DNA from: Gammaproteobacteria bacterium
GTDB taxonomy: Bacteria > Pseudomonadota > Gammaproteobacteria > CAJXQU01
Direction: 5' to 3'
DNA length: 64,000 bases
Assembly: GCA_045110495.1 (NCBI GenBank)
Contig: JBGCGE010000045.1
Span: forward strand, 10,462 to 74,461
Part shown: piece by piece, positions 20,269-30,543 of the stretch
Layout: each line of letters starts with the position of its first letter
Position numbering within the stretch: the first letter of the stretch is position 1
Position numbers and translations under genes: made by a program
The notes under the pieces: model-generated
Told to the model about the DNA's origin: nothing
The model's database searches: none
The model's input: only the letters and a program-made list of their open reading frames with translations

Positions 20269-21387
20269 CTAAGTTAGGGGTTCTTGTTGCGTTGCGCAGT
20301 GAATACTGCCACCACCGCTAGCAATACCATTAATCGCTATTTGTTCTATTTTACGATCTGGAAACACGTTGGAAAGTTTTTCTTTTGCAATTCGATCAGC
20401 TTTTTTATCACCAAACTTCTGCATGATGATCGCATTCTTACAGACGTAATATCCAACATATCCAGCCGCAAAATCTTTGGTTCCATATTCAGTATTTATA
20501 TCCCAGGGAGTATCAAGAATAATTGTTTCAAGTGTGTTGTTGTTTGCATCGGTTGATGATTGAAGGATACTGATATTCTCCCGTGTTATTTTATAATCAT
20601 AAGAAGATTTGTCTGTGTCTCGGCTGACCATAACGACGCCCGGTTTTGCGAAGCGAGCATAAAAATCAGTATGCCCATCGGTAATATCTTTTCCCTTAAT
20701 TCCTTTTAGCCAGATAATTTTATCTAAGCCGAGTAACGCTTTTAGTTTATTCTCGACTTCTGTTTTTGTTTTTCCAGAATTACGATTGTCATTGAGTATG
20801 CAACTTTCAGTCATGATTGCAGTTCCATGACCGTCAACTTCGAAACAACCACCTTCCAAAATCAGATCGGTATTGATCGTTTTTACATTCGCTACTTGAG
20901 CAACAAAATCGGCAATTTTTGAATCAAGGTCATACTTCTGATCTTCACCCCAACCATTAAAGTTAAAATTGACAGCTGATTTTTGTCCTTGATCATTAAC
21001 GACAAAAGCAGGGCCTGTGTCACGCATCCAAAGATCATTCATATTGAATTCGATCAACTCAATCGAATAAGGATACTCATTTCCCCCTCCGATAAGATCT
21101 AATGCTATTTTGTAATCTTCTTCTCTGACTAACATAGAAACAGGTTCATATTTAGCGATTGTTGTTGCGATAGTTGCAAGGTTACGCTGCACTTCAGGAA
21201 TTTGTTTTTCTTCCCAAATATCATAACTGGCAATGAATGACATCCAGGTACGTTTATGGTGTTCACCTTCATCTGGCATATACCATCTATTTTTTATATA
21301 TGAGTTCGCTTTTGAGATAAATACAGGAAGTGACATAAGACCTCCAATAGCCATTATGGATTGAATAAAATGACGTCTTGATTGCAT
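20269..21387 (-). CDS. Agmatine deiminase / Porphyromonas-type peptidylarginine deiminase family enzyme with a twin-arginine signal peptide.
   Basis: C-terminal GGGSIHCATQQEP (catalytic Cys motif of the family). N-terminal SRRHFIQ followed by a hydrophobic h-region (TAT motif). Confidence 0.7.
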   Translation of the reverse strand: MQSRRHFIQSIMAIGGLMSLPVFISKANSYIKNRWYMPDEGEHHKRTWMSFIASYDIWEEKQIPEVQRNLATIATTIAKYEPVSMLVREEDYKIALDLIGGGNEYPYSIELIEFNMNDLWMRDTGPAFVVNDQGQKSAVNFNFNGWGEDQKYDLDSKIADFVAQVANVKTINTDLILEGGCFEVDGHGTAIMTESCILNDNRNSGKTKTEVENKLKALLGLDKIIWLKGIKGKDITDGHTDFYARFAKPGVVMVSRDTDKSSYDYKITRENISILQSSTDANNNTLETIILDTPWDINTEYGTKDFAAGYVGYYVCKNAIIMQKFGDKKADRIAKEKLSNVFPDRKIEQIAINGIASGGGSIHCATQQEPLT

Positions 21388-21444
21388 GACTGTTTTCCTT
21401 TCTCGTTAATATTCAATTTGAGAAAATAGTCCGTTCTAATAAAT

Positions 21445-26172: not shown

Positions 26173-26843
26173 GAATGTTGTCGGAGATGCATTTCATGGC
26201 GAACACGAGGCGGATCAAATAGATTATTAAGTAGTGTCATTAAAATGATCAAAAACACAAATGCGTATAACGAAGGGCCAGTAATGATCACCGCTTGCTC
26301 ACCTAGTTTAACCACTGCAACGAGAAAACCTAATAAGAAAATTTCGATCATATTCCAGGGTACGCTGTGATGACTAAGACGCAAAACTGAATCACTCATT
26401 GCAGGAATCTTACCGAATAAAGGCGGAAGTAATAACCACGCATACGCTAACAACTGCAATAACGGCGTCAAAAAAGTCGTCGTAAAAACAACGAAAGCCA
26501 GAAAACGTTGGTCAGCTTCCCAAAGTGTCGAAGATGAAGAAAGAATCGTCGCTTCGATAATCTGACCACTGGCACTTATAGATAATAACGGAAAAATATT
26601 TGCCAGAAAAAATAAAATAAAACCCGTGATCGTTAAAGGTAATAGTCGATTAAAAAGTGAATTATCTCCTTCGCGAAGTATTCCTTTGCAACGTGGGCAG
26701 TGAGCTCTTTCAGATCGACTCAAAGGAGGTACTAGCATCAATACATCGCATTCATGGCAAATTGCCAGGTTGTCATTTTGTGAACTATTGATTTGAGTAT
26801 TATCAGGCATAAATTTTTTAATATAAAAATTATGAGCCAACAT
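26169..26843 (-). CDS. pqiA: PqiA-domain integral membrane protein (first half of a split pqiA).
   Basis: CHECDV ... CPRCKG zinc-ribbon-like motif plus TM segments, 224 aa. Overlaps the next gene by 4 bp. Confidence 0.7.
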   Translation of the reverse strand: MLAHNFYIKKFMPDNTQINSSQNDNLAICHECDVLMLVPPLSRSERAHCPRCKGILREGDNSLFNRLLPLTITGFILFFLANIFPLLSISASGQIIEATILSSSSTLWEADQRFLAFVVFTTTFLTPLLQLLAYAWLLLPPLFGKIPAMSDSVLRLSHHSVPWNMIEIFLLGFLVAVVKLGEQAVIITGPSLYAFVFLIILMTLLNNLFDPPRVRHEMHLRQHS

Positions 26844-26870
26844 TATTTAGAAGCTGATCTATTTTCAAAA

Positions 26871-27662
26871 TCAGAAAGCACTTTTAACGACACCACCATC
26901 AACTCTTAACGCAGCACCAGTTGTTGCTGATGCAAGGGGACTCGCAATATAAGCAACTAAAGAAGCCACTTCGCTTGGTGCGGCAAAACGTTTAATTAAC
27001 GATGTTGGTCTGACATTTTGGAAAAACTCTTTCTCGAATTCATCAAAAGATTTACCTTCTTGCTGTGCAAGTTCCTCAACAAAGTCACCTACGCCTCGGG
27101 ATTTTGTCGGCCCAGGAAGGACACTGTTTATCGTAATGCCGGTTCCTGCGACAGATTCCGCCAGCCCTCGAGAAATAGCTAGCTGAGCAGTTTTAGTCAT
27201 CCCATAGTGGATCATTTCTTCTGGAATTTGAATGCCACTTTCACTAGAAATAAAAACAATACGTCCCCAGTTTGTTTTTTTCATAGCAGGAAGATATAAA
27301 CGACTAAGGCGTACTCCGCTTAATACATTAATTTCAAAAAAACGTCTCCAATCATCATCAGAAATGTTTTCGAAAGATGCAGGCTCAAATATCCCTAAGT
27401 TATTGATCAATATTTCTACATTTGGATATTCTTGCACAAGCTGCTCGGCGGCTTCTTGTGTAGAAAGATCGCCAGCAAAACCGATTAATTCACCTGCCAC
27501 GCCAGGTGATAGTTTTGCAATCGCATTATCTACGGATCCCTGAGAACGACCGTTAATTATAACTTTGGCTCCTTCAGCAGCTAAAGTTTCAGCAATCGCA
27601 TAACCAATACCTGCAGTACTTCCGGTAACGAGAGATAATTTGTTTTTTAATTGTAAATCCAT
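26871..27662 (-). CDS. Short-chain dehydrogenase/reductase family oxidoreductase.
   Basis: LVTGSTAGIGYAIAETLAAEGAKVIINGR Rossmann motif; 263 aa. Confidence 0.8.
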   Translation of the reverse strand: MDLQLKNKLSLVTGSTAGIGYAIAETLAAEGAKVIINGRSQGSVDNAIAKLSPGVAGELIGFAGDLSTQEAAEQLVQEYPNVEILINNLGIFEPASFENISDDDWRRFFEINVLSGVRLSRLYLPAMKKTNWGRIVFISSESGIQIPEEMIHYGMTKTAQLAISRGLAESVAGTGITINSVLPGPTKSRGVGDFVEELAQQEGKSFDEFEKEFFQNVRPTSLIKRFAAPSEVASLVAYIASPLASATTGAALRVDGGVVKSAF

Positions 27663-27761
27663 ATTGGCTCCTGGTTATTTGAATACTTGTGTGTAAGTCA
27701 TCAAAGACTTAACGGCAGTTTTAAGGGGTAGACTATTTTTGTATTCATCACGAACTAATAG

Positions 27762-28364
27762 TTAGGAATTATTTGTAATATTATTTCGTTTCATATTTTG
27801 ATAAGCCCTTCTTTGTTTGGTTGTTTCGTATAACACAATACCAGTTGAAGTAGCTAAGTTAAGGCTCTCGATAATGCCATGCATTGGAATGTTTACACAG
27901 ACATCAGTATTTTCGTAAATAAAATCACTGATACCCGTGGTTTCATTCCCAAACCAAAGGGCTAATTTTTTATGTTTCGTAAAATCACATGCTTCTAGAT
28001 TAAAATTCTTCCTTTCACTTTTATGTGGTGAGGTAACGTAGGATATAAACCCGTTTTTTTTAAGATGCTCAATGCAAGATTTTGAGTCATCGAAACGTTT
28101 TACGAAACTCCACTTCACGGCAGAGGCTGATATTTTAAATAGAGTTTTATGTACTCTCATATCCTGCCATTCTTCTGGCAATTTTCTTGCTTCATCAACT
28201 ACATATACTTTTTCAGCTCCTAGAGCATTAACATTTCGAATCACAGCACCAATATTCTTCCAGTCTGAAGGATTTTCTACAACAACAATTAAATTTTTGC
28301 AGGTGAAATTCTTTATCTCGTCTAATTTCTTTCTTAGATCACTCTTGCCGTTCTCTTCGTACAT
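27762..28364 (-). CDS. SpoU/TrmH-family RNA 2'-O-methyltransferase.
   Basis: VVVENPSDWKNIGAVIRNVNALG and C-terminal SpoU motifs (IPMHGIIESLNLATSTGIVLYE). Confidence 0.7.
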   Translation of the reverse strand: MYEENGKSDLRKKLDEIKNFTCKNLIVVVENPSDWKNIGAVIRNVNALGAEKVYVVDEARKLPEEWQDMRVHKTLFKISASAVKWSFVKRFDDSKSCIEHLKKNGFISYVTSPHKSERKNFNLEACDFTKHKKLALWFGNETTGISDFIYENTDVCVNIPMHGIIESLNLATSTGIVLYETTKQRRAYQNMKRNNITNNS

Positions 28365-28450
28365 TCTTAAAGGCTCTCATAACTATTGATTGATATCTAA
28401 CAACTATACACCTCGAAGATCCTTGTGATAATAGTAAAATTAAGGTGATT

Positions 28451-29161
28451 TTATGATGGCTCTGGCATTTTAGAACGAAGTAACTCTAGAAATATTTTGT
28501 CAGGTGTTCCTCCAGCTTTTCGTTGCTTTTCTACCATAGACCATGCATTGGCATATTCATCACGCCAGAAATATGCCGTTGACCATGAGCCATATACATA
28601 CTCTTTATTTGGTTCAATTTCTTCAGCCTTTTCATATAGCGATTCAGACTGTGAAATTAAATTTGATTTTTCCTCAATGGACAGTGTTTTGTTACTAAGA
28701 GCACATAGAACAGTAACTCGTGCTGCATCTGGATATATACCTTGAAATGCTGGTGGATTAAGCGACAGTGATTTTTACATCATTTTCATGGCTTCGCAGT
28801 ACTGCCCCTGGTCATGTAAAACGGAACCAAAACCAGCGAATGTTTCAGGATTTTTGGGATCAAGTAACCAAGCTTGGTTAAATCTACGCATAGCCATTCC
28901 CAAATCATCTTGTGAATAGAACTTGAAACCTTGTTCTACCCACACTTTACTTGCCTTTTCTCTAGAACCAAATCGTTCTGTAACATCAGAAATGAATTTC
29001 TCATCTCCTTTTTTTAATTCAGAATTCTTTGATCTATCCATTCCCCCATACATGGGCACTTCATCAATTCGTGTTTGATGGTTTGGTGAAGTAGCTAAAC
29101 ACCCAGTTAAAATAAGGGTAAAGAATAGTAGAACTATTTTCATAATATTTTTTCTCACCAT
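28451..29161 (-). pseudogene. TPR-repeat lipoprotein gene interrupted by an in-frame TAA at 28775-28777.
   Basis: ORF 28778-29161 (lipoprotein signal LTGC, TPR-like) ends at TAA. Another 107 stop-free codons follow in the same frame (KSLSLNPPAFQGIYPDAARVTVLCALSNK ... ELLRSKMPEPS). The stop falls inside a TPR consensus (YCEAMKMM*KSLSLNP), where Tyr, Gln, Lys or Glu is expected. Confidence 0.7.
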
Positions 29162-29487
29162 GCCGAAGAGTTAAAAAATCAGTAATATCTTTCCGTATTT
29201 GAGTCGGTACAATACTCGATAAAACTGCCAGGAGGAACTCTGTCAGGATTCTTGAAGCCATGTTGGAATAACCTTTTTTACCTTGACCACTTCATTTTGC
29301 TTTATACAGGATAAATAGGGTGTTAAATAAAGTAAATGTAAGTGGATCATACTGGTTAGCTTACTTTTTATAGAATTACAAATTGAATATACTTTCCCAG
29401 CAGGCAAATACCTGGTAAGTCTCTTGTGATAACACCTGACTGTCCAGTAAGGTAACAAACAAAACTCAACAAATTCAAAAGTAGAGA

Positions 29488-30417
29488 ATGAAAAAAACGA
29501 TCACCTGCATATTTATATGTTTACTATTTTCAACATCAATTGTTAAGGCAGAATACCTTGAAGTAACGTTGCTTGGGACGGGGACTCCGAGGCCAGATAT
29601 TGATCGTTTTGGTCCGGCTACTGTTGTTGAAGTGAAGGGGCGCTATTTTGTTTTTGATGCAGGGCGCGGTATTACGATTCGTTTGATGCAAGCCGGTATT
29701 CCTTTATCGCAAATCGAACATGTTTTCATAACGCATTTACATTCTGATCATATAACCGGTTTATCGGATTTATGGTTAACGGGTTGGATCTGGCAGCGGG
29801 GTTGGGAGTTAAATCTTTATGGGCCTTGCGGTTTAGCACATTATGCAAAAAATATTGAGTCGGCTTATGAGGCTGATATTGATTATCGCAGTAAAAATAC
29901 TCAGCTAGAAAGTAACGCTGCGAAACTGAATGTTAAGGAAATCTCTCAGGATGGAATTATTTATGATCATGAGGGTGTGAAAGTAACTGCTTTTTCCGTA
30001 GAACATGGTGTTGTCGATCCTGCTTATGGGTATCGTTTAGATGCTAACGGTCGTTCGGTTGTGATTTCGGGCGACACCACTTATTCAGAAAATTTGATCA
30101 AACACTCGCAAGATGTTGATCTATTAATTCATGAAATTGCGGCAGCGGATCAGTCTTTATTGAAACAAAATGATCGTCTAAAAAAGGTGATGAGTTATCA
30201 CACGACGCCAGCTCAATCTGCTGAAATTTTTAATCAGACAAAGCCACGCGCAGCCATTTTTACGCATGTGTTGTTGTTTGGTGTTGAAGAAGCGGCGGTT
30301 CTAAACGAGGTTGGGGAATTATATAAAGGGCCGGTTTATATGGGAGAGGATCTATTACAGATCGGTGTTGGAGATGAGATTTCTATTCGGCGTTTTGAGT
30401 CTTCTAATAGTCATTAA
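29488..30417 (+). CDS. Secreted metallo-beta-lactamase-fold hydrolase.
   Basis: Signal peptide. HxHxDH motif (ITHLHSDHITG) and downstream His/Asp ligands. Confidence 0.75.
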   Translation: MKKTITCIFICLLFSTSIVKAEYLEVTLLGTGTPRPDIDRFGPATVVEVKGRYFVFDAGRGITIRLMQAGIPLSQIEHVFITHLHSDHITGLSDLWLTGWIWQRGWELNLYGPCGLAHYAKNIESAYEADIDYRSKNTQLESNAAKLNVKEISQDGIIYDHEGVKVTAFSVEHGVVDPAYGYRLDANGRSVVISGDTTYSENLIKHSQDVDLLIHEIAAADQSLLKQNDRLKKVMSYHTTPAQSAEIFNQTKPRAAIFTHVLLFGVEEAAVLNEVGELYKGPVYMGEDLLQIGVGDEISIRRFESSNSH

Positions 30418-30543
30418 TCATTCTAAACTCGGGGGGATTTTTACTTCTATAAGTGTATGGAAACGAATAGTTTGAAGGCTCAGATCTGGAAGCTAATCAC
30501 TTGAATTAGTCGAATAAACTCTTTTTTATTAACCGTTTTCAAG

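Follow-up and report, generated by a model that had tools for sequence, protein, structure and literature searches.

A probable nonsense mutation interrupts a tetratricopeptide-repeat lipoprotein gene in a gammaproteobacterial genome

A gene for a small tetratricopeptide-repeat (TPR) lipoprotein is interrupted by an in-frame TAA codon in the window, the whole 64-kb stretch of DNA that was analysed. Judging from the sequence of the gene and its homologues, this is probably a young pseudogene or truncated allele, in which the TPR lipoprotein gene was cut by one nonsense point change. A stand-alone gene for a TPR-type lipoprotein of about 230 amino acids would have been hit by a G>T transversion that turned a glutamate codon, GAA, into TAA, and translation would now stop inside helix B of the second TPR. 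The product left would be a 122-aa lipoprotein stump with some 1.8 TPRs, which retains the signal peptide, the lipobox and the motifs conserved at the N-terminus. The final 107 codons, corresponding to five helices and one of the two invariant cysteines, would be lost from the product; these codons should remain untranslated, since they have neither a start codon nor a signal peptide of their own. We infer that the organism itself carries this mutation, which would then not stem from an erroneous consensus, and that it no longer has the function of the full-length protein. The kind of event is already familiar, namely accessory-gene loss by point mutation, and it involves no new mechanism.

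Reading frame and protein architecture

The longest minus-strand open reading frame (ORF) of the locus, 29161..28775, encodes 128 aa and ends in ...GQYCEAMKMM*. Its stop codon, TAA at 28777..28775 on the minus strand (TTA on the plus strand), is codon 129 of this ORF and codon 123 when counted from the start at 29143. Beyond it, the frame stays open for 107 codons (KSLSLNPPAFQGIYPDAAR...LLRSKMPEPS, starting with KSLSLNPP), up to a TAA at 28453..28451. Given the local base composition, the probability of 107 open codons arising by chance is about 5e-4 analytically and 6.5e-4 in a Markov-1 simulation. The original prediction had placed an in-frame TAA at 28775-28777 within a TPR repeat of a lipoprotein gene and had judged the following open frame unlikely by chance. 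All of its coordinates proved correct to the base, and the chance estimates agree with its judgement, for which homology is decisive.

Translation probably begins at ATG 29143 (M7) and not at 29161, as both the closest homologue (P0001) and the GenBank protein MFK8068494.1 begin there. The upstream six-codon extension of the longest ORF, MVRKNI (29144..29161, minus strand), has no equivalent in P0001, and its translation is probably to be discounted. Neither the 128-aa nor a 127-aa version of the stump occurred in the protein collection. Counted from M7, the whole interrupted gene occupies 28451..29143 on the minus strand, that is, 230 codons including the internal stop, plus the original stop; by comparison with its homologues, this interval is the ancestral single ORF of a family of TPR lipoproteins of about 235 aa. 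The part that can still be made is the N-terminal fragment (28778..29143, minus strand), whose 122 aa are identical to MFK8068494.1. It is followed by the untranslated C-terminal remnant (28454..28774, minus strand), whose 107 codons correspond to five helices and hold the invariant Cys153, and by the original stop, TAA (28451..28453, minus strand), directly 3' of the conserved C-terminal family motif KMPEP.

Opposite the remnant, on the plus strand, lies an ORF of 82 aa with a TTG start (28497..28745). It had been regarded from the outset as a mere shadow of the coding strand, reasonably so: it runs antisense to a conserved coding frame, its product was absent from a collection of 15 billion proteins, and it is not a gene. 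Scanning for promoters and terminators was uninformative, with three promoter-like sites against 4.5 expected and no terminators.

The N-terminus carries a lipoprotein signal peptide, MKIVLLFFTLILTGC (29099..29143, minus strand), in which the lipobox L-T-G-C, read from the sequence, conforms to the pattern [LVI][ASTVI][GAS]C. The lipobox cysteine is nearly invariant in the family alignment (at least 90% conserved), and the product is predicted from the lipobox to be a bacterial lipoprotein. The residue at position +2 after this cysteine is leucine, not aspartate; by analogy with the E. coli +2 rule, the lipoprotein would be sorted to the outer membrane.

Two canonical TPRs follow (28754..28957, minus strand; residues ~69-136 of the 236-aa reading), and the premature stop falls at position 27 of 34 in the second, in helix B. 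The family profile matched consensus TPR proteins in the PDB over positions 68-140, with E values from 1e-53 to 1e-15. Matches to Pfam TPR_8 and TPR_2 (residues 111/112-136) run across the stop, bearing out the early suggestion that the downstream frame continues the TPR consensus; the single-sequence Pfam matches lie slightly under the gathering scores (TPR_11: 23.5 vs 26.8 bits). The gene product belongs to the TPR repeat proteins. An AlphaFold2 model of P0001, built from a 36-sequence alignment, is all-helical with a pLDDT of 90.6. It places the stop within helix B of TPR2, at residues 115-127 in P0001 numbering, and five of the ten helices counted after the signal peptide lie beyond it. 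The best Foldseek matches of the model were CTPR and OGT TPR domains, all of them generic TPR superhelices, and this fold search gave no functional lead.

Two cysteines that are invariant in the family flank the stop, C122 (28796-28798) and C153 (28703-28705), both on the minus strand, and both are kept in distant gammaproteobacterial members. Their conservation suggests that they may form a periplasmic disulfide.

The homologous family and the age of the lesion

A search with the fused 236-aa sequence recovered 626 proteins at E <= 0.001, the best with an E value of 2e-120. We aligned 20 and 120 homologues with the fused reading. The best 120 of the 626 measure 198-316 aa, with 230-251 aa as the usual size; they align to 83-100% of the query and are 51-79% identical to it. 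Every one of these 120 proteins has a sense residue at the stop column: glutamate in 69, aspartate in 39, asparagine in seven, glutamine and lysine in two each, and isoleucine in one. Orthologues ending at this position, followed by a frame unlike TPR proteins, had been named beforehand as the outcome that would speak against an interrupted gene; instead, the column is translated throughout the sample and the downstream frame is homologous to the family.

The members of this ~235-aa TPR lipoprotein family include proteins of Parvibium lacunae, Rhodoferax sediminis and Achromobacter spp., which their sources label ‘tetratricopeptide repeat protein’ or ‘Tfp pilus assembly protein PilF’; the named homologues are mostly from Betaproteobacteria. 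The window gene is 54-79% identical to them across the entire fused reading and has in common with them the lipobox, both invariant cysteines and the motifs IDxVPMYGGxDR, FGSREKAS, AMRRFNQAWLL, QGIYPDAAR and KMPEP, and it differs from them in having TAA where they have E, D, N, Q or K (in one case I). Three of these motifs, IDxVPMYGGxDR, FGSREKAS and AMRRFNQAWLL, sit in the 122-aa N-terminal fragment. The remnant in turn keeps the family-invariant residues PP, QGI, D145, C153, Y176, E183, K186, W199, R200, W207 and G217 and the terminal KMPEP. The fused reading is homologous to the family from end to end, with 97-100% coverage of full-length homologues, but the TAA interrupts the single ORF of ~230-250 aa that characterizes the members.

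The closest homologue, P0001 (locus L003), is 81% identical to the window gene at the nucleotide level. Around the stop column it reads ATG ATG GAA AAA TCA CTA TCG CTT AAT, where the window reads ATG ATG TAA AAA TCA CTG TCG CTT AAT, so the flanking codons are identical save for one synonymous difference (CTA/CTG). Since P0001 has GAA where the window has TAA, the interruption can be read as a single G>T change in a glutamate codon. Two further homologues, P0005 and P0013, have GAG at this column. The ancestral codon, judged from these alignments, was most likely GAA, and an intact allele would show C, not A, at plus-strand position 28777. Asking which residue replaces the stop in orthologues, as the original prediction had proposed, was thus answered by mostly E or D, with GAA in the closest homologue.

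The stop therefore lies one base away from the sense codon of an orthologue and has a homologous remnant downstream, the sequence pattern expected of a nonsense pseudogene. Ordinary nonsense pseudogenes share with the window gene the single-base distance from a sense codon, the homologous remnant in the same frame and the location in a variable accessory block. We found no substantive difference from them; the one oddity is that Marinicella meishanensis also has a stop at this column, as discussed below.

How long ago the gene was broken can be gauged from the remnant, which contains no secondary stops and no frameshifts. Relative to P0001, dN/dS is 0.08 upstream of the stop and 0.18 downstream, both far below 1. 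At columns at least 90% conserved among the 120 homologues, the window gene deviates at none of 38 upstream and at two of 30 downstream. The two downstream deviations, A194S and Y198F, are conservative, and 36% of the intact homologues deviate equally or more. A relative-rate count of lineage-specific substitutions in the window versus its sister P0001 gave 4:5 for the N-terminal part and 14:5 for the C-terminal part. The C-terminal excess was not significant in a binomial test (p=0.064), nor was the contrast between the two parts in Fisher’s test (p=0.21). Relaxed constraint downstream of the stop is at most faintly indicated by these substitutions, a weak hint; the acceleration, if genuine, would favour a real mutation over an error. 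As the remnant is essentially undegraded, the event must be young on an evolutionary scale. The lesion is either recent or not real.

Consensus error, truncated relatives and recoding

The main rival to a nonsense mutation is an error: the T at the stop would stem from base-calling, polishing or mixed strains, either as a mistake in the reads or their consensus or as a minority allele that became fixed in the consensus of a metagenome-assembled genome, and the organism’s own gene would be intact with GAA. We consider this unlikely, though it deserves to be taken seriously. The window does come from a metagenome-assembled genome (GenBank ‘Gammaproteobacteria bacterium’, on a contig of 127,792 bp), the changed base adjoins an A5 run, and decay downstream is not significant, as one would expect of an unbroken gene. 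However, the change is a substitution and not the homopolymer indel typical of long-read errors, and the rest of the 64 kb holds no frameshifted or split gene. The excess of lineage-specific changes in the C-terminal part (14 against five in the sister), next to a balanced N-terminal part, likewise points away from an error. So does the only Logan contig from the same sample (SRR29999185), which is independent and matches the window at 100% identity along 1,712 bp, but ends at 29210, 49 nt before the ORF.

We looked for further copies of the site. No second identical or near-identical copy was found in any of the searched collections, and the JGI metagenomes yielded no match to a 38-nt pattern spanning the stop in which the mutated base was set to N. 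The search with the 128-aa stump returned no near-identical fragment besides the GenBank protein MFK8068494.1, hence that collection holds no independent assembly of the site. Exact look-ups of the 128-aa product, the 122-aa product and TrmH among gene positions found none of them, and the 90% clusters of the neighbouring proteins are singletons. In the literature, we found no paper that mentions the run, assembly or protein accessions.

Other broken members of the family bear on the same point. Among the best 80 JGI metagenome loci, 79 are intact and one is broken (L071, 161-769), with an in-frame stop near the N-terminus, in the IDQVPMYGG motif. Locus L096 (1501-2250) has an in-frame TAA about 40 codons beyond the window’s stop column, where homologues have leucine, and in L095 (1501-2230) a GAAAAAGC run three codons after that column contains a frameshift. 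In both, the continuation is recognisable, and their contig names suggest long-read assembly, at 4.15x coverage for L096. That family members are broken at other places too agrees with an ordinary nonsense mutation in the window. That these low-coverage long-read assemblies carry a stop and a frameshift that are perhaps erroneous counts in favour of a consensus error in the window as well.

The family also contains natural short forms. The most prominent, P0176 (L012-L014, 2501-2929), has 142 aa and occurs on more than 80 contigs; its next gene begins 98 nt downstream, so P0176 is not itself a remnant. Further short forms (P0147, P0154 and P0164) measure 157-183 aa. All of these keep just the N-terminal module and two TPRs.

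A different kind of shortened member, distant from the window gene, was found in Marinicella meishanensis (GCA_019931145.1, JAIOUV010000003.1; L011, 2501-3220). Here, a 122-aa protein ending in CPAQDML is terminated by a TAG (2867-2869) at exactly the window’s stop column, and the same frame stays open for 116 codons with a recognisable C-terminal half. GenBank calls two ORFs at this locus, of 122 aa and 96 aa. The C-terminal half in Marinicella is 36% similar to an intact gammaproteobacterial member, versus 35% for the window remnant. The shared column is probably coincidental, for several reasons: the query with the stump favoured proteins that end at that column, a single step would turn 99 of the 236 codons into a stop, a family of this size could contain perhaps 10-20 nonsense-broken members, and truncated members otherwise end at scattered places. 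Even so, this stop is the sole element of the case that is not fully ordinary; it would be unexpected if hits fell purely at random.

These relatives raise the question of whether truncation is tolerated or even useful, in which case the 122-aa stump would serve as a lipoprotein of the short form, truncations at this boundary between modules would persist, and the Marinicella stop would find an explanation. Natural short members exist and are widespread, the strongest family motifs all precede the stop, and the Marinicella TAG occupies exactly this column, followed by a remnant that is open and recognisable. Against this, helix B is complete in the natural short forms and is followed by a capping segment, whereas the window’s helix is cut five residues early, and the stump keeps one of the two invariant cysteines without its likely partner. 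Moreover, truncated members end at scattered positions and show no build-up at the stop column. A single coincidence would be no great surprise, given the biased stump query, the 99 codons that one step could turn into a stop and the perhaps 10-20 broken members in the database. On balance we regard a functional short form as improbable, although the stump may retain some function by analogy with P0176, since there the N-terminal module can exist alone. Slighter still is the chance that truncation recurs, tolerated or selected, at the helix B column of TPR2 that follows ‘...C-x6’, of which the window’s TAA and the Marinicella TAG would be two instances. Were it real, it would mean either convergence on a short-form lipoprotein or low-level readthrough that yields two isoforms from one gene.

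Readthrough was among the three explanations first put forward for the stop, alongside a recent nonsense mutation and a sequencing error. It gained no support, and the recent nonsense mutation emerged as the best supported, given the single G>T change and the undegraded remnant. Under programmed readthrough, or with a suppressor tRNA, the full-length protein would be produced, perhaps beside the short one. As in known readthrough systems, an in-frame stop is followed by an open and conserved coding frame, and Marinicella supplies a second genome with an in-frame stop at the same column. Established cases of readthrough and recoding include the A1 protein of Qbeta at UGA, selenocysteine at UGA and pyrrolysine at UAG; UAA is read by both release factors, and we know of no established bacterial recoding of UAA. 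Unlike in those systems, the stop here is UAA, homologues lack it, and in a search that took in a tRNA scan of the window we found no leaky context, stimulatory structure or suppressor tRNA at the UAA-A stop.

Several further results make readthrough very unlikely. The stop is absent from this column in 120 of 120 protein homologues and in 80 of 80 sampled metagenome loci, with Marinicella as the single exception, so that the conservation expected of a recoded stop is missing. The two genomes use different stops in different contexts (TAA-A in the window vs TAG-C in Marinicella). Neither stop is followed by a stable RNA structure: the 90 nt 3' of the window’s stop fold no better than shuffled sequences (z -0.25), and the corresponding value in Marinicella is +1.07. 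The only tRNA in the window is Arg-TCG. The window has a coding density of 92% and 67 long intact ORFs, of which 34 end in TAA, 24 in TGA and nine in TAG. With 67 intact ORFs, no other split gene and TAA the commonest stop, the contig is clean and uses the standard code. Reassignment of the genetic code was ruled out as well, TAA being the commonest true stop.

It could also be imagined that the gene is deliberately split, with halves that are made separately and then assemble, and in Marinicella the remnant is indeed called as a separate 96-aa ORF. Yet the window’s downstream frame contains no ATG, GTG or TTG that would give at least 30 aa, and the second half has no signal peptide and could therefore not reach the periplasm. 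A split gene with re-initiation is effectively refuted by the missing in-frame start codon, and deliberate splitting in any form is barely credible.

Genomic setting and the PilW label

The interrupted gene is part of a variable block of four genes and 3.7 kb (26773..30511), which encodes an SDR oxidoreductase (MFK8068492), a TrmH methyltransferase (MFK8068493), the broken TPR lipoprotein and an MBL-fold hydrolase (MFK8068495). In a relative, represented by a 3.33-Mb contig (ENA ERZ25767047, locus L010), the flanks are collinear with those of the window at 82-84% nucleotide identity, and about 196 bp (L010, 10515-10710) stand in place of the block. At the block junctions, we found no flanking direct or inverted repeats and no integrase or mobility genes. 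Elsewhere on the same contig, an IS110-family transposase (L010, 16004-17062) lies between UDG and CheR/CheW, and the window lacks it at the corresponding place (~20442-21441).

Among family members, too, the gene neighbourhood is not conserved, and intact homologues stand beside unrelated genes. The flanks of the P0001 gene (L003, 1-135 and 829-962) are GC-rich and unlike those of the window, and both hold the motif GCGTTATGTG. As these flanks are unrelated to the window’s, the genomic context of P0001 is different again. A single-sequence search of genome contigs recovered only a 41%-identical locus. When the 107-aa remnant served as the sole query, one candidate and no matches were returned, which seemingly reflects a limit of word-based retrieval and is no proof of absence. 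From this comparison of loci, the TPR gene appears to be a stand-alone accessory gene in a variable spot. Variable accessory blocks are a usual place for gene loss.

In GenBank, the 122-aa stump (MFK8068494.1, 28778-29143) is labelled ‘type IV pilus biogenesis/stability protein PilW’. The window gene resembles the PilW/PilF pilotin (PDB 2ho1, 2fi7) in being a small TPR lipoprotein of similar size, and TIGR02521, the NCBIfam model for PilW, is its best NCBIfam match. However, the stump scores 25.1 bits against this model, the fused reading 30.6 and intact homologues 26.8-37.2, compared with a curated cut-off of 154. With all scores far under the cut-off, those of the intact homologues included, the model does not support the name. 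In Foldseek comparisons, the query-normalised TM-score was 0.32-0.34 for PilF and 0.45-0.51 for most designed consensus TPR chains. No pilus genes adjoin the window’s TPR gene: its neighbours are TrmH, the SDR oxidoreductase and the MBL-fold hydrolase, and the nearest gene with a secretin domain is about 6 kb away, in a part shared with the relative that lacks the TPR gene. The stump is not PilW but the first half of an interrupted gene that belongs to an uncharacterised family of TPR lipoproteins.

The main value of the finding lies in annotation, as the public ‘PilW’ record should be a pseudogene of an uncharacterised TPR lipoprotein family. Were the Marinicella match more than chance, this widespread family would have an N-terminal module that is autonomous. 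For the biology of the organism, the interruption represents another accessory gene lost through point mutation.
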